NCBI GenBank assembly: GCA_049177215.1
Contig: CP185379.1
Span: forward strand, 2,921,549 to 2,985,548
DNA: 64,000 nt
From: Candidatus Pollutiaquabacter aromativorans
GTDB taxonomy: Bacteria > Bacteroidota > Bacteroidia > AKYH767-A > 2013-40CM-41-45
Direction of reading: 5' to 3'
Part shown: in pieces, positions 1,391 through 46,363 of the stretch
How positions within the stretch are numbered: position 1 is the first letter of the stretch
How the letters are laid out: every line of letters starts with the position of its first letter
Translations under genes and position numbers: made by a program
Notes under the pieces: generated by a model
Database searches by the model: none
Told to the model about the DNA's origin: nothing
What the model saw: only the letters and a program-made list of their open reading frames with translations

Positions 1391-1576
1391 GTTTCCGGTT
1401 TCGAGTTTCGGGTTTCGGGTTAGTTGAAGGTTGAAGGTTGAAGGTTGAAAGTTGAAGGTTGAAAGTTGAAAGTTGAAAGTTGCGTTTCGGCTCACTGCTC
1501 ACATCCCGCGTCCCTCCATAATAACAACTGGAAACCCGAAACCGGAAACCCGAAACTGCAAACCACAAAACCCGAG
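1391..1576. repeat. long imperfect palindrome built from heptamer tandem repeats: (GTTTCGG)x4, then (GGTTGAA/GGTTGAAA)x9, then a (CCGAAAC)-type right arm
   Basis: Read directly from the sequence. The left arm is gtttccggtttcgagtttcgggtttcgggtt. The right arm is ggaaacccgaaaccggaaacccgaaac. It lies between the djlA stop and the cvpA start. Confidence 0.85.
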
Positions 1577-2426: not shown

Positions 2427-2508
2427 TACTGTTTACTGTTTACTGTTTACTGTTCACTATTCGCTATTCGCTATTCGCTATTCGCTCCACACTGTTCACT
2501 GTTCACTC
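2427..2508. repeat. heptamer tandem array (TGTTTAC)x3 (TGTTCAC) (TATTCGC)x4 (TGTTCAC)x2 that overlaps the last about 12 nt of pgk
   Basis: Read directly from the sequence. The pgk C-terminus LSEQ and its stop are encoded within the terminal (TGTTCAC) units. Confidence 0.85.
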
Positions 2509-3713
2509 AAAACAGCCGCTACTCCCGGCAGCACCTTTCCCTCAAAATACTCCAGCAGTGCTCCACCGCCGGTGGAAACATAGGAGACTTTGTCGCCGAA
2601 ACCGAATTGGTTGACGGCCGCGGCGGAGTCGCCACCGCCGATGAGGGAGTACGCGCCCTTGACCGTCGCTTCCGCGATGGCTTCCGCGACTTTGCGGGTA
2701 CCGTTGGCGAACTTTTCCATTTCGAACACGCCCATCGGTCCGTTCCAGAGGATGGTCTTCGATTCGCGGATCACCTGCTGGAAGTCGGCCACGGCCTGCG
2801 GGCCGATGTCGAGTCCCATCCAGCTGTCGGGGATCGCGTTGTTGGCCGCGATGGAGGTGTTGGCGTCCTTGTCGAACTTGTCGCCGAGCACCGAGTCCGC
2901 TGGCAGGAGCAGTCGACAACCTTTCGCCTTTGCCTTTTCGATCAGTGATTTGGCCAGGTCGAGCTTGTCTTCTTCCACAAGCGAGTTGCCGACCTGTCCG
3001 CCCATGGCTTTGAAGAACGTATACGCCATCCCGCCGCCGATGAGAATGTTGTCGGCCTTGTCGAGGAGGTTTTCGATGATGAGGATCTTATCGCTCACCT
3101 TCGCTCCGCCCATCACCGCGGTATACGGACGGGCGGGCTGGTGCATGACCTTCTCAGCATTGTCGAGCTCGGCGGCCATGAGGTAGCCGAAGCATTTCTT
3201 GCCGGGGAAGCTGGAGGCGATGACGGCGGTGGAAGCATGCGCACGGTGCGCGGTACCGAAGGCGTCGTTCACGTAGAAGTTGCCGTGCCGCGCGAGTTGC
3301 GCGGCGAATTCCGCGTCGCCTTTCTCTTCCTGCTTGTAGAAGCGCAGGTTCTCCAGCAGCAGCACTTCACCCGGCTTCAGGGCAGCCGATTGAGCGTAGG
3401 CGTCGTCGCCGATGCAATCGTCGGAAAAGCGGACCGGCCGACCGAGCAGTTCGGCGGTGCGTTGTACGGCATGCCGCAGGGTGAATTTCTCACGATCGAT
3501 GGATCCATCTTCTTTCAGCTTCTTGAGCGGGCGGCCCAGGTGGGAAAGCAGGACCACCGATCCTCCGTCGGCGAGGATCTTGTTGATGGTCGGCAGGGCA
3601 GCCCGGATACGGGTATCGTCGGTGATCCGGAAAGACTTATCCAGGGGAACATTGAAATCCACACGCACCAGCACCCGCAGGCCGGCGAAGTTGAACGAAT
3701 CGACGGTTTTCAT
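2496..3713 (-). CDS. pgk: phosphoglycerate kinase
   Basis: The N-terminus [25 protein letters not shown] is the Pgk hallmark. The length is about 405 aa. The internal ATG at 3711-3713 on the minus strand is chosen rather than the 3776 ORF start. Confidence 0.92.
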
Positions 3714-5929: not shown

Positions 5930-5976
5930 TGTGCAACTATATGGTTGCAAATATATGTGCAATTATATGGTTGCAA
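5929..5976. promoter_or_regulatory. candidate ArsR operator: two direct copies of TGTGCAAyTATATGGTTGCAA, each containing TGCAA...TTGCA inverted half-sites
   Basis: Seen in the sequence immediately 5' of the arsR-like start codon on the minus strand. Confidence 0.45.
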
Positions 5977-5994
5977 AAGGAGTGGAGAATAAAA

Positions 5995-11083: not shown

Positions 11084-12688
11084 ATGGCTTGCGCTTCGTG
11101 CGGAACAGGAACAGACGGGAAACCGGGTGGGTGCCGCAGCAACGGCACCTGTAGCACAGGTGGCTGTAACAAGTTGAACGTCTACAATTGGTTGTCGGAT
11201 ATGGTGTTGCCCAACGGGCAGCAGTCGTTCGACGTTGTAGAAGTACGCTTCAAAGGCAGCCGCAAAGAATTTTTCCGGAACAAAGAGCTGCAGGACCTGC
11301 GTGTGGGTGATATGGTAGCGGTGGAAGGAAGTCCCGGTCACGACGTCGGCACGGTGTCGATGGTTGGCGAGTTGGTGCGCTTCCAGTTGCGCAAGAAGAG
11401 TCTGGCAGAGAATTCGGAGTCGATCAAAGCGCTCTACCGCAAAGCCAAGCCGGGCGATGTGGAGAAGTGGTGCGAGATGAAAGACAAAGAGCCCGCCACG
11501 CGCAAGCGCACGCGGGAGATCATCGAATCGCTCAAGCTCAACATGAAGTTGAGCGATGTCGAATTCCAGGGCGACGGCAAGAAAGCCACCTTCTACTATA
11601 CCGCTGAAGAGCGCGTCGATTTTCGAGAACTCATCAAGCGTCTCGCCGATGAGTTCCGTATCCGGGTCGAGATGCGGCAGATCGGCATGCGGCAGGAAGC
11701 CAGCCGCTTGGGCGGCATTGGTGTCTGTGGCCGTGAACTTTGCTGTTCCACCTGGCTCACCGATTTCAAGACCGTATCGACCAGCGCGGCGCGCTATCAG
11801 AATCTTGCGCTCAATCCCGCCAAGCTCGCGGGACAATGCGGCAAGCTCAAGTGTTGTCTTAACTACGAACTGGATTCGTACATGGACGCGGTACGCGACA
11901 TTCCGGCTTCGAACATCATCCTCGAAACCGAGAAAGGTCGCGCGTTCCACCGCAAGACCGATATCTTCAAGCGATTGATGTGGTACGCGTTCAGCGAGAA
12001 CGAGCGGAGAGGCGAAGGCGAACAAGCGTTCACCGGCGAAGGCAACTGGGTCGTCATGCCCGTCGATCGTGTGAAGGAGATCGTCGCGCTGAACAAAGAA
12101 GGCAAGAAGCCGGGCGAACTCATGGAAGGCGACTGGCTGGAAGTGGAGGTCGAAGAAGAACCGGACTACGCCAACGTGGTTGGTCAGGACCGGATCGACC
12201 GGATGGACAAGAAGAAGAAGAAAAAGAAGAAGAAGAAATCATCCGGCAGCGGCAACGCTCAACAGGCAGCTCCAACGGGTCAGGCACAGGGCGGACAACC
12301 CCAGGGTGGCCAACCGAAAGAACGCGGACAGCAAGGTGGTCAACAACGGCAGCGACCCGACAACCGTCCGCAAGGCGGCAAAGGAAGCGGGCCTCGTCCG
12401 CAGCAGAACCAGCAGCAAGGCGGCAAACCGCAGCAACAGGGTCAGCAACAGAACCAACAGCAACGTCAGCAACAGGGGCAGCGTCCCCAGCAGCAAGGAC
12501 AAAACAACAACCGTCAGCAGCAACAGGGACCGCGTCCGCAACAGCAACAAACTCCGCGTCCGCAGGGCGAACAGCGTCCGCAGCAGGAGCAGCGCCCACA
12601 GGGCGGAAACCGGGAGCCACGTCAGCGGCCTTCCGCACCTCCGCGTCAGTCGCCCGGACAATCAACGCCGCCGCCAGAATCGAACTGA
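11084..12688 (+). CDS. ricT: PSP1 C-terminal domain protein (RicT/YaaT homolog) with a Cys-rich N-terminus and a long Gln/Gly/Pro/Arg-rich low-complexity tail
   Basis: The N-terminus reads MACASCGTGTDGKPGGCRSNGTCSTGGCNKLNVYNW. The PSP1 core includes CCSTWLTDFKTVS and GKLKCCLNYE. The tail starts with KKKKKKKKKK and is followed by QQ/GQ/PQ repeats. Confidence 0.8.
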   Translation: MACASCGTGTDGKPGGCRSNGTCSTGGCNKLNVYNWLSDMVLPNGQQSFDVVEVRFKGSRKEFFRNKELQDLRVGDMVAVEGSPGHDVGTVSMVGELVRFQLRKKSLAENSESIKALYRKAKPGDVEKWCEMKDKEPATRKRTREIIESLKLNMKLSDVEFQGDGKKATFYYTAEERVDFRELIKRLADEFRIRVEMRQIGMRQEASRLGGIGVCGRELCCSTWLTDFKTVSTSAARYQNLALNPAKLAGQCGKLKCCLNYELDSYMDAVRDIPASNIILETEKGRAFHRKTDIFKRLMWYAFSENERRGEGEQAFTGEGNWVVMPVDRVKEIVALNKEGKKPGELMEGDWLEVEVEEEPDYANVVGQDRIDRMDKKKKKKKKKKSSGSGNAQQAAPTGQAQGGQPQGGQPKERGQQGGQQRQRPDNRPQGGKGSGPRPQQNQQQGGKPQQQGQQQNQQQRQQQGQRPQQQGQNNNRQQQQGPRPQQQQTPRPQGEQRPQQEQRPQGGNREPRQRPSAPPRQSPGQSTPPPESN

Positions 12689-16833: not shown

Positions 16834-16851
16834 GAACCATATCCGCACAGA

Positions 16852-30717: not shown

Positions 30718-31704
30718 ATGACCAGTCTGATCATCACCTCTATCTCCGCTCCGAATGCCGTGCTGCGTCGATTTGCGGAAGCCTGTCCCCAACATGGCCT
30801 TGACTTTGTTGTCATTGGAGACGTAAAATCGCCTGCCGATTTCTCGCTACCGGGTTGCCGGTTCGTATCCATCGAGGAGCAAGACACGCTCAACTTCCGG
30901 CTGGCCCGGATTCTTCCCAAGAAACACTACGCGCGCAAAAATCTGGGCTACCTGCTGGCCTGGAAAAGCGACTGCATCATCGAAACGGATGATGATAATT
31001 TTCCGTACGACACGTTCTTCACACCACGTAACCGATCGGTTGATGCATTCACCGTTGGCGGAAAAGGCTGGGTGAATGCGTATGACTATTATTCCGACGA
31101 CAAGCTTTGGCCGCGTGGGTTGCCCCTGGAGGCGATCCACAACCCTACACCTCCGCTTTCCCTGACACGACAAGCCGTCCTTGCTCCGGTCCAGCAGGGA
31201 CTTGCCAATGAAAATCCCGATGTTGACGCGGTGTTTCGTATGACACGGGAACTCCCGGTGAATTTTCGTTCGGCGCCCCCGGTAGCACTGGGCGAAGGCG
31301 CCTGGTGCCCCTTCAACAGCCAGAACACTACCTGGTTTCCGGAAGCTTTCCTGCTGCTCTACCTGCCTTCCTATTGCAGTTTCCGCATGACCGATATCTG
31401 GCGCAGCTTTGTCGCACAACGGCTGCTGTGGACCTGCGGCTGGCCCATGCTTTTTCACGAAGCGACCGTTTGGCAGGAACGGAACGAACACAACCTGCTG
31501 CGCGATTTCTCGGACGAAGTGCCGGGATACCTGCACAATGCAGCGATGGCACATGCGCTGGAGGAACTTGACCTGAAATCCGGGCAAGAACACCTTTCCG
31601 AAAATTTATTCCGTTGCTACCAGACACTCACTGAACGGGGCTGGGTCGGAAAAGAAGAGCTACCGCTGGTAGAAGCCTGGATCCAGGACGCGGAAATCCG
31701 TTGA
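30718..31704 (+). CDS. hypothetical protein with a DDD motif, possibly a glycosyltransferase-associated (DUF288/STELLO-like) enzyme
   Basis: It starts 6 nt after the GT2 stop. The sequence CIIETDDDNFPYD suggests a nucleotide-sugar binding acidic motif. The family assignment is tentative. Confidence 0.35.
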   Translation: MTSLIITSISAPNAVLRRFAEACPQHGLDFVVIGDVKSPADFSLPGCRFVSIEEQDTLNFRLARILPKKHYARKNLGYLLAWKSDCIIETDDDNFPYDTFFTPRNRSVDAFTVGGKGWVNAYDYYSDDKLWPRGLPLEAIHNPTPPLSLTRQAVLAPVQQGLANENPDVDAVFRMTRELPVNFRSAPPVALGEGAWCPFNSQNTTWFPEAFLLLYLPSYCSFRMTDIWRSFVAQRLLWTCGWPMLFHEATVWQERNEHNLLRDFSDEVPGYLHNAAMAHALEELDLKSGQEHLSENLFRCYQTLTERGWVGKEELPLVEAWIQDAEIR

Positions 31705-31705
31705 T

Positions 31706-31820
31706 GGTTTCGAGTTTCCGGTTTCGAGCTTCATGTTAGATGAAGTATATTGAATGTAGGTGGAAATCCTAAACATCGGAAATCCAATTTCAACGCGAAA
31801 CCCGGAACCCGGAACCCACG
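31706..31820. repeat. palindromic heptamer-repeat element (GTTTCGA GTTTCCG GTTTCGA ... CGAAACC CGGAACC CGGAACC) with a central hairpin CTTCATgttagATGAAG
   Basis: Read directly from the sequence. It lies between convergent genes. Confidence 0.85.
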
Positions 31821-33192: not shown

Positions 33193-33252
33193 GCCACAAG
33201 ACTACGCGGATGCGCGGTCGCTGGCAACCAATCTATGCAGTTTCTTTTAGGA

Positions 33253-33329
33253 GGGGCGAGGGACGAGGGACGGGGGACGGGGGACGAGGGACGGGGGACG
33301 AGGGACGAGGGACGAGGGACGGGGGACGA
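33253..33329. repeat. (GGGACGR)x11 heptamer tandem array
   Basis: Read directly from the sequence. Confidence 0.9.
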
Positions 33330-33393
33330 AAAAAATGACGCGTTTATAAGAAACGGGATAATTCCAGGACGCGATGGTTGGTATAAACCTTGG

Positions 33394-34682: not shown

Positions 34683-34750
34683 CTGGAAACGCGGAACTCG
34701 AAACCCGCCTGCCTGCCGCAGCTTTAGCGTAGGCAGGGAACCCGGAACCA
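34683..34750. repeat. heptamer-repeat palindromic element (GGAAACG CGGAACT CGAAACC ... GGGAACC CGGAACC) with an internal hairpin CCTGCCtgccgcagctttagcgtaGGCAGG
   Basis: Read directly from the sequence. It sits at the 3' end of the serine hydrolase gene. Confidence 0.75.
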
Positions 34751-34769: not shown

Positions 34770-35927
34770 TTACCGGACCATCTCGACAGCTCCCCGCACG
34801 TAGGCCTTGAAGTCGCTGTAATGCTGGTCTTCCTCTTTGGTGCCGCGTTCAATGCCGAGCCGCACCACGACGAGTTGCAGATCCGGGATCACGATGATGT
34901 ATTGACCAAGGATTCCTCTTGCATACACGACCCGATGACCATCCACGGTTGCAAGCCACCAGTGATAACCATAATAATCAGTGACCGCTCCCCGCTCATC
35001 CGGCAAGCCGATGGGCGTGGTCATTTGTCGGATATAATCTTTCGACACTATTTGCCTGCCTTGAGACATTCCACTGTCAAGCACCAACTGTCCGATCCGG
35101 GCAAAATCGCGGGCATTGGAATAGAAACAACAATACGCCTTTTCAATTCCGTCGGCGTGATCGAGCGACCAGAACGCGGGAGCGGTTGCCCCCAGCGGCT
35201 TCCACAGTTTTTTCGCAGCGTAATCAGACAAACGTTCGCCCGTGGCTCGTTCAAGGATCATTCCCAACAACAACGTGTTGCCGCTCATGTACCGGAACAC
35301 GGAACCGGGCTCCTCGATCACCTTGAGCTTATTCGTCAGTGCCGGTAAGTCGGTTCCATAATACGCCTCGGTAGTATAGGAGAAGAGCGAAGCATACGAT
35401 TCATCCCAGTTCAGGCCGGAGCTCATCATCAACAACTCCCGGATGCTGCAGCTGTTTCCCGCATCGGTATTGAAATGCGGCAGATAGCGCCCGATCGGCT
35501 GGTCGAGTTCCAGGAGGTGTTCATCGGCCGCGATCCCCACGAGCAACCCGACAATGCTCTTTGCAACGGAAAAAGAATTGCTGGGCGATACCGTATCGTA
35601 GCGGTCCCAGTATTGTTCGTACAACAAGCTGTCGTTGCGAACTACCAGGTAGGCAACGCTTTTGTTCTTCTCCAACTCCCCGCTGAGCGGTGCGGAGGGC
35701 CGGCGGTCCTGATAGTCGGATGCATAGGGCCAACGAACGGGTGCCGGATCGTCGATGATGCGGGTGGAAAACAGCTCCAGATCATCGATACCCGGATAGG
35801 TATAGACCAGTGTTTTGAAAACGTAGCTGTAACCGGTAATCATCAGGGCCACCGAGCCACTGAGGAGAAACAAGAAGATCAGCCCGAGTGTTCGAAACAG
35901 GATCCGACGGAAGCGTGCGTTAGCCAT
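34770..35927 (-). CDS. serine hydrolase of the beta-lactamase family
   Basis: An SxxK motif is present (FSVAKS). An N-terminal TM anchor is present. Confidence 0.7.
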   Translation of the reverse strand: MANARFRRILFRTLGLIFLFLLSGSVALMITGYSYVFKTLVYTYPGIDDLELFSTRIIDDPAPVRWPYASDYQDRRPSAPLSGELEKNKSVAYLVVRNDSLLYEQYWDRYDTVSPSNSFSVAKSIVGLLVGIAADEHLLELDQPIGRYLPHFNTDAGNSCSIRELLMMSSGLNWDESYASLFSYTTEAYYGTDLPALTNKLKVIEEPGSVFRYMSGNTLLLGMILERATGERLSDYAAKKLWKPLGATAPAFWSLDHADGIEKAYCCFYSNARDFARIGQLVLDSGMSQGRQIVSKDYIRQMTTPIGLPDERGAVTDYYGYHWWLATVDGHRVVYARGILGQYIIVIPDLQLVVVRLGIERGTKEEDQHYSDFKAYVRGAVEMVR

Positions 35928-37211: not shown

Positions 37212-40037
37212 ATGCGTACTTCCCTCTGCCTGCTCCTGCTGTTTCTACTTTTACCACTTTTCCTTTCAGCCCAATCTCATTCCGTCAGCGGCAAGCTGTC
37301 CGGATCCGATGGCAGCGCGTTGATTGGCGCCTCCGTCATTCTGCAACGACTTCCCGACTCCTCCTTCGTAGCAGGAACGGTTACGGATGCAACCGGCAAT
37401 TTCTCGCTCCTGGCACCCCGGCCTGGAGACTATGTTATCAAACTCGCGTTTGTCGGCTTCGAAGATCTTTTCATTCGACGAAACATCACTACGAACATCG
37501 AATTAGGGACCCTGAAGCTGCGCGACAAAGCCACGGTCTTATCGACTGTCAATATTGTAGAACTCACGCCTCCCGCGCTCCAGAAAGGCGACACCACCGA
37601 ATACAACAGTAAAGCGTTCAAGACACAGCCCGATGCCAATGCCGAGGACCTGGTAACAAAAATGCCGGGCATCCAACAAGGAACCGACGGCAAGGTGCAG
37701 GCGCAGGGCGAAAACGTGCAACGCGTGTTGGTCGACGGCAAGCCGTTCTTTGGCGACGATCCCAATGCCGTGCTGAAGAATCTGCCGGCGGAAGTCATTG
37801 ACCGTATTCAGGTCTTCGATCAACGCAGTGATCAGAGTCAGTTCACCGGATTTGACGACGGCAACAGCTTAAAGACGCTCAACATCATTACGAAGCCGCA
37901 GTTCCGCGACGGTGTTTTCGGACGCGCATTCGCCGGGGCAGGAACCGAAGACCGCTGGAAAGGCGGCGCTACCGTCAACCTCTTCAACAAGAATCGTCGC
38001 CTCACTTTCCTGCTAAACGGCAATAACATCAACGAGCAAAACTTCTCTACCGAGGATCTGCTGGGTGTGATGAGCGGTAGCAGTAACAATAACCGGCCGC
38101 AAGGTATGCGCGGGGGTTTCGGTGGACGTGGAGGCGGGCGCGGGCGCGGAGGTGAAAACTTCTATAACCCGGCTGACAATTTCCTCGTCGATCAGCGAAA
38201 CGGCATCAGCACCACACAATCGTTCGGTGTGAACTATGCCAATAAATGGAAAACAGTCGATGCCAGTTTCAGCTACTTCTTCAACCGGAGTGAAAACGAA
38301 GCGGTTTCAGACCTCTATCGAACCTACATCACGGCGGAGAACAGTGACCTGGCCTACATGGAGACCTCGAACACCAATTCGATCAACCTGAACCATCGCT
38401 TCAGTTCGCGCGTGGAATGGAAACTCGACTCCCTCAATTCATTCATCATCCAGCCGAAGTTCTCTCTTCAGCATAATGAGGGGGACCGGGTCTTGCTCGG
38501 AAGCAACATTTCCGGTTCATCGATTACCGGTTTCACCGACACGCAGAATGGCTCTGATCTGGACGGGATCAACACCAGCGTTTCGCTCCTCTGGCGCCAC
38601 AGTTTCCAAAAACGTGGTCGCTCGCTAAGCCTTTCCATGACGCCAGGCTTTAACAATCAAAAGGGGAATAACTATCTGCTCTCCTTACTCGACAGCTACA
38701 ACGATACGCTCGCGGCAGACAAAACCGATCAGGTCGGAAGAATCGACAAGCAAGGTCTTACCCTGAACACACAAGTGAACTATACTGAACCACTGAGCGA
38801 ACGCAGCCAACTTCAAGTCAGCTATGGCGGAAATTACCAACGGAACACCTCCGACAAAGCGACGTTCAACTATGTGGCGGCCACACGCGACTACATCGAC
38901 AAAGACTCGAGCCTTTCCAACAACTTCCGAACGGAGTATGTTTCGCATCAGGGCGGACTGACCTATCGATACAACAAACAAAAGTGGAACCTGGGTATCG
39001 GCGCCAACTATCAGCAGGCATCGCTTGACAACACGTTCATTGATCCCGAGCGAGAACCGGTTGCCCGCAACTTTTCCTCCGTTTTGCCGAACGCTTTCTT
39101 CCAGTACCGATTCAGTCAGCGTAAAAGCCTGCGGGCGAATTATCGCTCGAACAATAACGCCCCGACAGCCGACCAATTACAATCCGTCATCAACAACAGC
39201 AATCCCCTGCAACTCACTTCCGGCAACCCGGACTTGTCGCAGGACTTTCAAAACAATCTCAGCATTCGCTATTCGGCGGTGAATACCGAGAAGAATTCGT
39301 CTTTCTTCGCCTTGCTTGCAGGCTCCTACACGTTCGATTATATCGGCAACAGCACCTTTGTCGCGTTTTCTGACACCGTTCTGAGCAGCACGGTCACACT
39401 TGCCAGCGGATCCCAGTACACTCGTCCGGTTAACCTTGACGGTTACTACAACCTGCGTTCGTTCATGAATTACAGCTTTCCGGTGAAATTCCTGAAGTCC
39501 AACCTCAACCTGAACGCGTCTCTTAACTACAACCTGACACCGAGCCTGATCAACGAGTTGAAAAACGAAGCGGGCAGCGGCACCTACGGCGCCGGCGTGT
39601 TACTCAGCAGTAACATCAGCGAGAAAGTGGACTTCAGCATCGGCACTAATTTTTCCTACAATTCCCTGCACAATACCCTACAGGCTTCTGCCGACAACGA
39701 ATACTACTCACAAACCAGCAGGGCCAAAATCCAGGTGATGCCGTGGAAAGGGCTGGTCCTGCTTTCGGAGTGGAACTATACGTACAACACGGGGCTTAGC
39801 AGCAGCATCAACCAGAACATCCTCTTGTGGAATGCCGGGATCGGATACAAATTCGGCAAGGACCGTGCATTCGACTTGCGACTGACGGCCTTCGACCTGC
39901 TCGAAGAAAACACCAGTGTAACCCGTACCACCACGGATACCTATTTTGACGATAGCCGTACGAACATCCTGCAACGGTATTTCATGCTGACACTGACCTA
40001 TAATTTCAAGAAATTCCGCGAAGCGGAAGGACAGTGA
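37212..40037 (+). CDS. outer-membrane beta-barrel protein similar to TonB-dependent receptors, with an N-terminal carboxypeptidase-regulatory-like domain
   Basis: A signal peptide is present. The sequence SGKLSGSDGSALIGASVIL is CarbopepD_reg-like. A plug-like region follows. The length is 941 aa and the C-terminus ends in an aromatic-rich beta-barrel. Confidence 0.7.
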   Translation: MRTSLCLLLLFLLLPLFLSAQSHSVSGKLSGSDGSALIGASVILQRLPDSSFVAGTVTDATGNFSLLAPRPGDYVIKLAFVGFEDLFIRRNITTNIELGTLKLRDKATVLSTVNIVELTPPALQKGDTTEYNSKAFKTQPDANAEDLVTKMPGIQQGTDGKVQAQGENVQRVLVDGKPFFGDDPNAVLKNLPAEVIDRIQVFDQRSDQSQFTGFDDGNSLKTLNIITKPQFRDGVFGRAFAGAGTEDRWKGGATVNLFNKNRRLTFLLNGNNINEQNFSTEDLLGVMSGSSNNNRPQGMRGGFGGRGGGRGRGGENFYNPADNFLVDQRNGISTTQSFGVNYANKWKTVDASFSYFFNRSENEAVSDLYRTYITAENSDLAYMETSNTNSINLNHRFSSRVEWKLDSLNSFIIQPKFSLQHNEGDRVLLGSNISGSSITGFTDTQNGSDLDGINTSVSLLWRHSFQKRGRSLSLSMTPGFNNQKGNNYLLSLLDSYNDTLAADKTDQVGRIDKQGLTLNTQVNYTEPLSERSQLQVSYGGNYQRNTSDKATFNYVAATRDYIDKDSSLSNNFRTEYVSHQGGLTYRYNKQKWNLGIGANYQQASLDNTFIDPEREPVARNFSSVLPNAFFQYRFSQRKSLRANYRSNNNAPTADQLQSVINNSNPLQLTSGNPDLSQDFQNNLSIRYSAVNTEKNSSFFALLAGSYTFDYIGNSTFVAFSDTVLSSTVTLASGSQYTRPVNLDGYYNLRSFMNYSFPVKFLKSNLNLNASLNYNLTPSLINELKNEAGSGTYGAGVLLSSNISEKVDFSIGTNFSYNSLHNTLQASADNEYYSQTSRAKIQVMPWKGLVLLSEWNYTYNTGLSSSINQNILLWNAGIGYKFGKDRAFDLRLTAFDLLEENTSVTRTTTDTYFDDSRTNILQRYFMLTLTYNFKKFREAEGQ

Positions 40038-40040
40038 GGC

Positions 40041-40160
40041 AGGGGTTGGGGGTTTCGGGTTCCCGGTTTCGCGTTTGTTCTGAACTAATTCAACCTGAAT
40101 ATTCCAGAGCTCGAAACCCGGAACCCAAAACCCGGAACTTCCAACCAATTCAACATCGGT
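40041..40160. repeat. palindromic heptamer-repeat element (GGTTGGG GGTTTCG GGTTCCC GGTTTCG ... CGAAACC CGGAACC CAAAACC CGGAACT TCCAACC)
   Basis: Read directly from the sequence. It sits at the 3' end of the OM protein gene. Confidence 0.85.
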
Positions 40161-44847: not shown

Positions 44848-44934
44848 TTACGGGAACCAGATAACCACAAAGGACACCGAGTACACACAGAGGATCACAG
44901 TGAAAAAGTGATGGTGGAGAGCGGGGGCGATAGA

Positions 44935-45065
44935 AACTGGTGGCTGGTAACTGGTAACTAGTAATTAGTAATTAGTGATTGGTGATTAATAATCAATAAC
45001 AGTTTACTATTCGCTATTCGCTATTCACTGTTTACTGTTCACTATTCACTGTTCACTGTTCACTC
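44935..45065. repeat. heptamer tandem arrays (CTGGTAA)x2, (TAGTAAT)x2, (TGATTGG)x2, (TATTCGC)x2 and (TGTTTAC/TATTCAC/TGTTCAC)x6, abutting the tolC 3' end
   Basis: Read directly from the sequence. Confidence 0.85.
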
Positions 45066-45067
45066 CC

Positions 45068-46363
45068 CTACTCCGGCAACCGATTCATCAACCGCTTCAA
45101 CTCCGTTTCCGCCAGCTTGGCTGTATAACGAACATTAGCAAGTGAAGCGGCTGTGGCTTCGTAGCTGGCCTGTGCGGCACGGAGGTCGAGTACGGTAGCC
45201 TGGCTGGTAGCGAATCGTTGCGAAAGGATATCCAGCAGGCGTCGCGAGAGTTGTTCGTTTTCTTCCTGCAAGCCGACTTGCTCGAGTGCTGTCCGATAGG
45301 CGGCATAGGTCTTCAAGGCCTCTGACAACAAACCCTGTTCGACGTTCTGTTGTTGTATCCGGGCGTTCTCGGTTTGCAACTTCGCTACGCGGTGCTGTCG
45401 TTCGAACGCCCCGCCGTTATAGATAGGTACTTGCAAGCTGAGTCCGATGTTCGGGCCGTAACTCTGGTTGATGAGCGAGAACCCGGCTTCGCTCTGGCTA
45501 CGCTGGAAATTGTAACCACCGTTGAGCCGCAGACTTGGGAGCCGTTGCGCGTTGATCTCCCGTTCGAGCTGTTCGTTGATCACCACCAGCGCACCGGCTG
45601 CTACGTAGTCCGGATTCCGTTGCAAATACGAGCGTACGGAATCCTGCCGGATGCTTTGATCGAGCATGAGCGAATCCGTCGGTGAAAGGGTCGAGTCGCC
45701 CGGTACGGCAAGCAACCTCGACAGGTCCAGCTTAGCCTGGCGGATCGCCAATTGTTGTGCGCTCAGCGCTTGCTCGGCGGCATTCAGATCGATGCGCGCC
45801 TGAAAAAGGTCGGCGTCATTGGCCAGCCCGACCCGCGCCCGTGTTTCCAACACCTTGACACGCTCCGCAACGAAATCCCGGCTGCGTGTAAGCGCCTGTC
45901 CCACCTGCTCCTGCCGCTGAACGTCGTAGTAGCGACCGATCACCGCGGCCAAGGTGCTTTGTATTTGCGACAACAACTGAGCGTCACCCGCTTCTTGCAG
46001 CCGGGCGAGTCGCTCGCGCGTGGCGCTGATGCGATACCCATTGAAAAGGGTATAGGAAACGGCGAGGGCGCCGTTCATCGTATTGCCGGCAGCGCCGTCG
46101 CGCTCGATGATCGTACCGTTGGCGAGTTTTTGATAGATGTTGGTACTCTGCTGCACATCGCCTCCCGACAGGTTCACGGTCGGCAGTGCGCCTGCCACAC
46201 CCGGATGGTTGTTCCATTCGGCCGCCTCCGCATTGTTCCTGGCCAGACGGACTTCGAGGTTGTTCTGCAAGGCACGATCCATCGCTTCCTTCAGTGAAAG
46301 GCCGGTTTGTCCCGTTGCAAACACCGGGAAGAAAAGCAGGATCAGGAGTCGTTTCAACTTCAT
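45068..46363 (-). CDS. TolC family outer-membrane efflux protein
   Basis: A signal peptide is present. The two-repeat TolC architecture is present. It is the last gene of the efflux operon. Confidence 0.8.
   Translation of the reverse strand: MKLKRLLILLFFPVFATGQTGLSLKEAMDRALQNNLEVRLARNNAEAAEWNNHPGVAGALPTVNLSGGDVQQSTNIYQKLANGTIIERDGAAGNTMNGALAVSYTLFNGYRISATRERLARLQEAGDAQLLSQIQSTLAAVIGRYYDVQRQEQVGQALTRSRDFVAERVKVLETRARVGLANDADLFQARIDLNAAEQALSAQQLAIRQAKLDLSRLLAVPGDSTLSPTDSLMLDQSIRQDSVRSYLQRNPDYVAAGALVVINEQLEREINAQRLPSLRLNGGYNFQRSQSEAGFSLINQSYGPNIGLSLQVPIYNGGAFERQHRVAKLQTENARIQQQNVEQGLLSEALKTYAAYRTALEQVGLQEENEQLSRRLLDILSQRFATSQATVLDLRAAQASYEATAASLANVRYTAKLAETELKRLMNRLPE

Follow-up and report, generated by a model that had tools for sequence, protein, structure and literature searches.

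Heptanucleotide repeat arrays and their inverted pairs at gene 3' ends in a Candidatus Pollutiaquabacter genome

What are the long palindromes, built of tandem GTTTCGG-type heptamers and their complements, that follow several genes in a stretch of the genome of Candidatus Pollutiaquabacter (Bacteroidota, Bacteroidia)? The stretch, here called the window, is 64,000 nucleotides (nt) long, and the original prediction took four such loci for one special family of elements resembling repetitive extragenic palindromic (REP) sequences or miniature inverted-repeat transposable elements (MITEs). We find that the arrays of the window belong to the class of heptanucleotide simple sequence repeats (SSRs), rather than to a new mobile element. 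Their best explanation, which we consider probable, is that they are compound heptanucleotide microsatellites of the short tandemly repeated repetitive (STRR) or long-SSR class, with inverted pairs of arrays that may serve as U-tract-less stem-loops at gene 3' ends, and that they are not mobile copies. Heptanucleotide repeats were already recognised in the intergenic DNA of bacteria by 1990. What is new here is the organism, the very high density of the arrays, the direct polymorphism in steps of 7 nt, the contact with stop codons, and the polarity of the inverted pairs, in which the G/T-rich arm comes first.

Paired arrays behind stop codons

Tandem GTTTCSR-type heptamers or their complements are present at all four sites, and the two-unit motif GGTTTCSRGTTTC, with at most one mismatch, occurs 17 times in the window against 0.51 occurrences expected from shuffles. 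At three of the sites, locus 1 (1390-1564), locus 2 (31706-31817) and locus 4 (40043-40146), the arrays are true inverted pairs (Table 1), and the minimum-energy RNA fold joins arm to arm; scored against dinucleotide shuffles, the folds have z values of -2.25 at locus 1, -3.4/-2.8 at locus 2 and -4.5/-5.4 at locus 4. The single palindromic architecture that had been described for all four sites holds for these three but not for locus 3. There, both arrays are of the GAAAC type on the + strand and so do not form an inverted pair, the hairpin that they flank has 7-9 bp, and shuffled sequences fold as well (z -0.8/-1.2).

Each of the four elements begins 0-20 nt past a stop codon, in agreement with the original prediction. 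The left arm of locus 1 starts on the A of the TGA stop codon of djlA (TerB and DnaJ domains; 671-1390). That of locus 2 begins 2 nt past the stop codon of a STELLO-like gene (30718-31704), and its right arm ends 6 nt short of the stop codon of a convergent minus-strand HhH-GPD glycosylase gene. Locus 3 lies in sense orientation 20 nt past the stop codon of a beta-lactamase-fold gene (34770-35927). The products of this gene and of djlA are each identical to a protein listed by NCBI under Candidatus Pollutiaquabacter. Two of the four loci had been placed between convergent genes, but this is true of locus 2 alone; loci 1, 3 and 4 lie between co-directional genes. Likewise, GGTTGAA-like heptamers, said often to follow the left arm, do so at locus 1 only, whereas the small hairpin proposed for the locus 2 spacer does appear in the predicted fold. 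A fifth GTTYCGR array (2106-2144), with a fold z of +1.2, had been overlooked, as had about ten further heptamer arrays of other units.

The arrangement is not confined to this genome. A scan of one genome per species with a pattern of four GTTTCSR units returned at least 119 stretches, in Acidobacteriota, Bacteroidota, Desulfobacterota, Planctomycetota, Verrucomicrobiota, Chloroflexota, Cyanobacteria and other phyla, and many of the matches listed share one layout, in which a stop codon is followed by an array, a short spacer and an inverted YCGAAAC array. Among the matches listed, an inverted array of at least three units lies within 300 nt downstream of 23 of 110 GTTTCSR arrays (background windows, 4 of 444) and within 300 nt upstream of 8 of 110 (background, again 4 of 444), and 21 of 104 arrays start no more than 15 nt past the sense-strand stop codon of a long open reading frame (ORF), against 4.4% in the background. 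For these foreign loci we used the distance to stop codons of long ORFs in place of greedy longest-ORF gene calls, which were unreliable; because the arrays are open in every frame, spurious ORFs are extended around them. An extreme case was seen in a metagenome-assembled genome of the Cyclobacteriaceae (L028, 4600-5000), in which a run of about 36 GTTYCNG units gives way without interruption to about 20 complementary units of the AACYCYG type.

Closer to the window, in contigs of the same lineage, an inverted pair of GTTTCG units lies between the stop codon of a peptidyl-prolyl isomerase (PPIase) gene and the start codon of pheS (L002, 6972-7041), and other units form inverted pairs as well, among them AGTAATT (L003, 7158-7302), GGGACGA (L239, 1591-1924) and TTAGTGG. 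The frequency of GTTTCSR stretches in many phyla had raised the possibility that GTTTCGR is a special, conserved unit. This candidate was ruled out with two scrambled heptamers of the same composition, run on viral contigs: GTTTCSR gave 39 stretches there and the scrambled units 26 and 36, with inverted partners in all three sets. The GTTTCGG unit is not special, because scrambled heptamers are about equally common in viral contigs.

The pairs nevertheless have a direction. In inverted pairs of any unit, the G/T-rich arm is the 5' one in 38 cases versus 9 in the genome loci, among the matches listed (p = 2.5e-5), in 28 versus 13 pairs in the viral loci, and in all seven pairs from the Pollutiaquabacter lineage. 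This G/T-first polarity is possibly a new rule. Because a palindrome reads alike on both strands, the polarity is independent of the DNA strand, which points to a 5'-to-3' process such as transcription and not to a strand-symmetric property of DNA. Unpaired GTTTCSR arrays beside stop codons are also biased, with 20 in sense orientation versus 9 in the other. Across phyla, about 81% of the G/T-first pairs adjoin one or more gene 3' ends, 37% have a stop codon on either side, and 99 of 104 inverted pairs fold arm-to-arm. A general origin of the arrays as a by-product of convergent 3' untranslated regions was considered and rejected, given that loci 1 and 4 and the PPIase-pheS pair in L002 are co-directional and that only the 37% just mentioned have the two-stop setting.

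Whole-unit change between strains

Homologous intergenic regions were aligned from independent assemblies of the same species, in which the flanking proteins are identical. All eight indels found within arrays across the strain contigs measure 7 or 14 nt, in line with the slippage-type generating process that had been suggested. The RGTTGAA array is the sole polymorphic part of the locus 1 spacer: relative to the window, strains carry 0, +1 or +2 units of GGTTGAA (+7 and +14 nt), so that the djlA-cvpA spacer is 217, 224 or 231 nt long in the alignment. The fifth array (2106-2144) is shorter by 14 nt, or two units, in five other strain contigs, and the array at 2420-2510 lacks 7 nt at 2440 in other strains; its CTATTCG units number about 16 in strain L004 versus 4 in the window. 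At locus 2, the left arm is 14 nt shorter and the right arm 7 nt longer in strain L127, and at locus 4, the right arm alone is 14 nt shorter in strain L244. Since the array indels are all multiples of 7 and the arms differ separately, the change is best described as whole-unit slippage, with arms that are largely independent. Loops of more than about 4 nt escape MutS-dependent mismatch repair, so products of 7-nt slippage would be hard to repair. Not everything varies in this way. The sequence of locus 3 is identical across three other strain contigs, and the locus 2 spacer has been swapped for unrelated sequence in three of the five other strain contigs that span the locus.

In relatives with 72-79% DjlA identity, arrays occur at the same intergenic sites but are made of other units (GAGGGAC, TTAGTGC, GAGTTGC), and one relative, L254, has none. 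The unrelated spacers, the independent change of the arms, the pairing of other units and the frequency of the scrambled controls leave the single special GTTTCGG family that was originally proposed unsupported.

The lineage is well suited to pursuing these processes. Because Pollutiaquabacter turns up in hundreds of wastewater metagenomes (671 blocks of the metagenome contig collection index its DjlA protein alone) and is very array-rich, it offers a natural population-genetic system in which to study the spectrum of slippage, selection on hairpin stability, and the G/T-first polarity. There is also a practical side, in that such arrays break short-read assemblies and create spurious ORFs.

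Proposed origin and role, and the alternatives

The best explanation runs as follows. The arrays gain and lose whole 7-nt units between strains, as strand slippage during replication would lead one to expect, and the sequence of the unit drifts along a tract. Where a G/T-rich array is followed, after a spacer of 5-110 nt, by a complementary array, the transcript or single-stranded DNA is predicted to form a long imperfect hairpin, in which 5-bp GUUUC/GAAAC blocks are split by one or two mismatched positions. Such a hairpin could then act as a 3' stem-loop without a U-tract, either by blocking 3'-to-5' exonucleases or by marking or assisting the end of the transcript, and its stem length could be adjusted through slippage. 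If the elements have any function, we infer that this role is the likeliest, because the hairpins stand at gene 3' ends and lack a U-tract. If the hairpins are functional 3' ends, microsatellite dynamics would be shown to build and tune RNA structure.

Several observations weigh against this account. The arms do not co-vary: L127 has two units fewer on the left and one more on the right, in L244 only the right arm is shorter, by two units, and in L242 the left arm of locus 4 has two substitutions with no compensating change in the right. Compensatory changes between arms were sought across strains, and none was found among three variant haplotypes. Over the 104 pairs, arm lengths are weakly matched (Spearman 0.16, p = 0.11), the mean difference in arm length being slightly below that in permutations (p = 0.009). 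Many arrays have no partner, for example those at 2106-2144, 33249-33330 and 44931-45067. The relative L254 does without arrays at the same sites, where its spacers are compact. Finally, slippage accounts for changes in copy number, but not for the period of 7 nor for the origin of the inverted copies.

Most of these points are what would be expected if the arrays and their inverted pairs were neutral by-products of slippage and template switching in unconstrained DNA, with the 3'-end location reflecting tolerated junk. The complete replacement of spacers between strains and the irrelevance of unit identity fit such an origin equally well, and it stays plausible because the arms lack covariation and a relative lacks arrays. 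A strand-symmetric process, however, does not predict the strong, strand-independent polarity of the pairs in the genome, viral and lineage loci. Also difficult for it are the occurrence of arrays 0-8 nt from stop codons, far above background, and the excess of sense orientation among the unpaired arrays beside stop codons. We regard a purely neutral explanation as possible rather than likely.

The polarity could be taken further, to a cross-phylum class of polar, U-tract-less 3'-end hairpins, in which the G/U-rich arm comes first, near the stop codon, the C/A-rich arm, resembling a Rho utilization (rut) site, is sequestered as soon as it is made, the stem is tuned by slippage, and the polarity is selected at the level of RNA. 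This extension we find doubtful. If it were true, C-rich RNA would be shielded from Rho, or the 3' end of the mRNA would be set, and heptamer arrays would be an evolvable route to building such stems. For the U-tract-less stem-loop proposed above, the protective stem-loops of Rho-dependent transcripts provide a partial analogy: like the structures predicted here, they are stable, lie downstream of the gene and have no U-rich tract. At locus 1, moreover, the 43 nt past the right arm contain 15 C and 6 G and no T-run, a C-rich, G-poor composition like that of a rut site. The analogy is not exact because those stem-loops are short and non-repetitive, whereas the window elements are long and repetitive, and are known here from sequence and predicted folds.

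Several known kinds of heptamer repeat come close to the arrays of the window. STRR heptanucleotide repeats were reportedly described in heterocystous cyanobacteria by Mazel and colleagues in 1990. They resemble the arrays of the window in having tandem 7-nt units, several families per genome, an intergenic location and a high copy number, and differ in host and units; documented strain polymorphism in 7-nt steps, stop-adjacent inverted pairs and G/T-first polarity set the Bacteroidota arrays apart. Three tandem heptanucleotides of this type are recorded for Calothrix PCC 7601 (cited in PMC4692102). Heptamers are the most abundant class of long SSRs in the survey of Mrazek (2007), as summarised in PMC4679880, where polymerase slippage is proposed as their origin. 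In those summaries the likeness extends to the over-representation of period 7 and its exclusion from coding DNA, but the survey appears there as a statistical one, with neither a hairpin architecture nor an association with stop codons. The GGGAATC/GGGGAYT arrays that Rehm et al. (2015, PMC4692102) described in Xanthomonas and Nostoc are also intergenic, contain 2-26 units and differ widely in length and sequence among close relatives. A subset of the Xanthomonas GGGAATC repeats occurs as plus/minus-strand inverted pairs able to form stem-loops or cruciforms (PMC4692102). The GAGGGAC arrays of the window are, like the GGGAATC repeats, capable of forming G-quadruplexes, and the GTTTCGG units are not. 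In contrast to the GGGAATC repeats, inverted pairs close to stop codons are the dominant form of the GTTTCGG family here.

A different kind of selection could maintain the period if each array offered a series of binding sites to a protein whose domains each read about 7 nt of single-stranded RNA or DNA, such as a cold-shock or S1-type protein with an oligonucleotide/oligosaccharide-binding (OB) fold. There is precedent in the binding of CspB to heptamer direct repeats, one protein per heptamer, and similar candidates have been proposed for the TAACTGA direct repeats of Beggiatoaceae, Cyanobacteria and some Bacteroidetes (MacGregor 2015, PMC4679880). Those repeats are also intergenic, occur in Bacteroidetes beside other heptamers and are missing at the corresponding site in close relatives. 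The TAACTGA sets, however, consist of one unit and lie mostly just upstream of start codons, whereas the window arrays have many units and lie mostly after stop codons. A strict 7-nt register that survives changes of unit family, as in the tract at 44931-45067, would be explained by selection for binding. But at least six unrelated units occur in one genome and the units of relatives differ at the same site, which disfavors a single sequence-specific reader, and the arrays of paired elements are predicted to be double-stranded. Thus, this possibility seems unlikely.

Ordinary intrinsic (Rho-independent) terminators that happen to be made of repeats would also stand directly past stop codons, in one instance between convergent genes, and would have stable predicted stems. 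Yet no T-run follows any right arm and the loops span 33-110 nt instead of 3-8 nt, so these are not canonical intrinsic terminators, as the original prediction had maintained. The U-rich arm, furthermore, is the 5' and not the 3' one, and the window has canonical sites elsewhere, with a GC-rich stem and a T-run (near 16850, 55100 and 61725). A simple scan for terminators and promoters, whose site counts equal those in shuffles and which missed the obvious terminator near 16850, flagged, among the elements, only a self-fold of the locus 4 left arm and missed the arm-to-arm hairpins. All told, we consider this reading quite improbable.

REP, bacterial interspersed mosaic element (BIME) and REPIN palindromes of Proteobacteria, which can stabilise upstream mRNA, are the obvious comparison for extragenic palindromes at gene 3' ends. 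REPs, however, all repeat one conserved sequence of 20-40 nt that has a defined head motif and a REP-associated tyrosine transposase (RAYT) as partner, whereas the window elements have no unique sequence in common and are built in place from microsatellites. Although the elements are palindromic, extragenic and multi-copy, and the genome does contain a dispersed module of about 200 nt with TTCACTG-type array boundaries (below), spread of REP/REPIN- or MITE-type palindromes by a RAYT or other transposase is very hard to credit, given that the four elements share just low-complexity heptamers that align in many registers, have unrelated spacers, no conserved head motif and no target-site duplication, differ in arm copy number between strains in situ, and have an architecture that recurs in many phyla and with scrambled units. 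Specifically, blastn ruled out REP or MITE copies, the five GTTTCGG-type elements being alike in their arrays alone; the four spacers showed no blastn similarity to each other or to the rest of the window, and no direct duplication flanks the arms at loci 1-4. A CRISPR array, with direct repeats of 23-50 nt and unique spacers of similar length, was likewise rejected, since the 7-nt units here follow one another without any spacer. Rfam 15, at the gathering threshold, gave no match anywhere across the window, and a full-text literature search with the exact repeat sequences matched solely unrelated eukaryotic or primer sequences.

Other arrays of the window and the dispersed module

The GTTTCGG-type elements are part of a broader population of heptamer arrays (Table 1). 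Tandem Repeats Finder and an autocorrelation scan agree that 7 is the only enriched period, with 15 runs (540 nt), compared with four runs of period 6 and one of period 9; periods 4, 5, 8 and 10-12 gave no runs in the window. There are about 16 period-7 arrays from about six unit families (GTTTCGG, RGTTGAA, GAGGGAC, TTCACTG/CTATTCG, AATTAGT and AACTGGT), all of them in non-coding sequence, which makes up roughly 10% of the window, and most touch a stop codon. At a strict threshold the window has 13 arrays in 64 kb, and three partly overlapping contigs of the lineage have 61 in 48 kb, so that the flanking same-lineage sequence is even denser in arrays than the window itself.

Table 1. Heptamer arrays and associated features of the window
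Feature	Start	End	Strand	Description
Locus 1, left arm	1390	1421	+	About 4.4 GTTTCSR units; pairs with 1526-1564 in the minimum-energy fold
Locus 1, RGTTGAA array	1422	1482	+	About 8.7 units; most of the locus 1 loop
Locus 1, right arm	1526	1564	+	About 5 SYGAAAC-type units; ends 44 nt short of the start codon of cvpA (1608)
GGGACGA array	2068	2102	+	About 4 units; overlaps the cvpA stop codon
Fifth GTTYCGR array	2106	2144	+	About 5 units; sense orientation after cvpA, without inverted partner
TTCACTG array	2178	2210	+	About 4 units; left boundary of the dispersed repeat module of about 200 nt
Compound ACTGTTY/CTATTCG array	2420	2510	+	About 12 units; abuts the pgk stop codon (minus strand, 2496-3713)
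AATTAGT array	5988	6024	+	About 3.6 units; about 50 nt downstream of a minus-strand methyltransferase gene
Locus 2, left arm	31706	31732	+	About 3.7 GGTTTCS units
Locus 2, inner hairpin	31729	31745	+	CTTCAT-gttag-ATGAAG in the spacer; present in the predicted fold
Locus 2, right arm	31795	31817	+	GCGAAACCCGGAACCCGGAACCC
(GAGGGAC) array	33249	33330	+	11 units between two minus-strand genes
Locus 3	34685	34749	-	Two same-orientation arrays, minus strand GGTTCCGGGTTCC ... GGGTTTCGAGTTCCGCGTTTCC, around a small hairpin (34708-34737)
Locus 4, left arm	40043	40073	+	GGGGTTGGGGGTTTCGGGTTCCCGGTTTCGCG; begins 6 nt past the stop codon of an outer-membrane receptor gene (37212-40037)
Locus 4, right arm	40112	40146	+	CGAAACCCGGAACCCAAAACCCGGAACTTCCAACC; the next + strand gene (40288) starts about 140 nt downstream
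Compound period-7 tract	44931	45067	+	About 19 units, one continuous tract

Drift of the unit is clearest in the longest tract, at 44931-45067, which passes from ACTGGTA through ATTAGTA, ATTGGTG and CTATTCG to ACTGTTC in a single 7-nt register. It takes up most of the space separating two convergent genes and reaches as far as the stop codon, at 45068, of the one on the minus strand. At 2496-2510 the compound array enters a gene, with AGTGAAC units supplying the final four codons of pgk and its stop codon (..LSEQ*). The AATTAGT array has grown to about 11 units in L239. The (GAGGGAC) array, 57 nt upstream of where a minus-strand gene starts, consists of tracts of three to five G separated by 4-nt loops and could thus fold into a G-quadruplex on the + strand.

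The cvpA-pgk spacer contains, between its TTCACTG-type arrays, a segment of about 200 nt (2205-2405) that is a dispersed repeat and not part of the GTTTCGG elements. Immediately upstream of the window, the same genome has at least seven more copies (L239, 3177-4005 and 7089-7793; L002, 4188-5242), which are 79-92% identical and occur in either orientation. Each copy is bounded by ACTGTTY/AGTGAAY arrays, and some are arranged as tandem modules of about 340 nt in a gene-free stretch of 1.7 kb. The module is missing from the cvpA-pgk spacer in strain L004 and absent in the relatives L252-L255. Possibly it is a small mobile element, either bringing heptamer arrays with it or inserting into them, and because the dispersed copies are bounded by TTCACTG-type arrays, some arrays may travel with a mobile unit. 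A small hairpin, GACCCC-TAC-GGGGYC, occurs twice within it (2290-2304 and 2341-2355), and the motif recurs in other copies of the module.

Two further repeats in the window have other periods. A period-14 repeat, TGCAAATATATGGT, of about 3.4 copies (5932-5977) sits immediately before the start codon of an ArsR/HTH_5 regulator gene (minus strand, about 5915) and looks like an operator. The PSP1-domain gene (11084-12688) contains short in-frame repeats at 12188-12605, with periods of 3, 9, 12, 15 and 18, which are coding low-complexity sequence, unlike the non-coding period-7 arrays.

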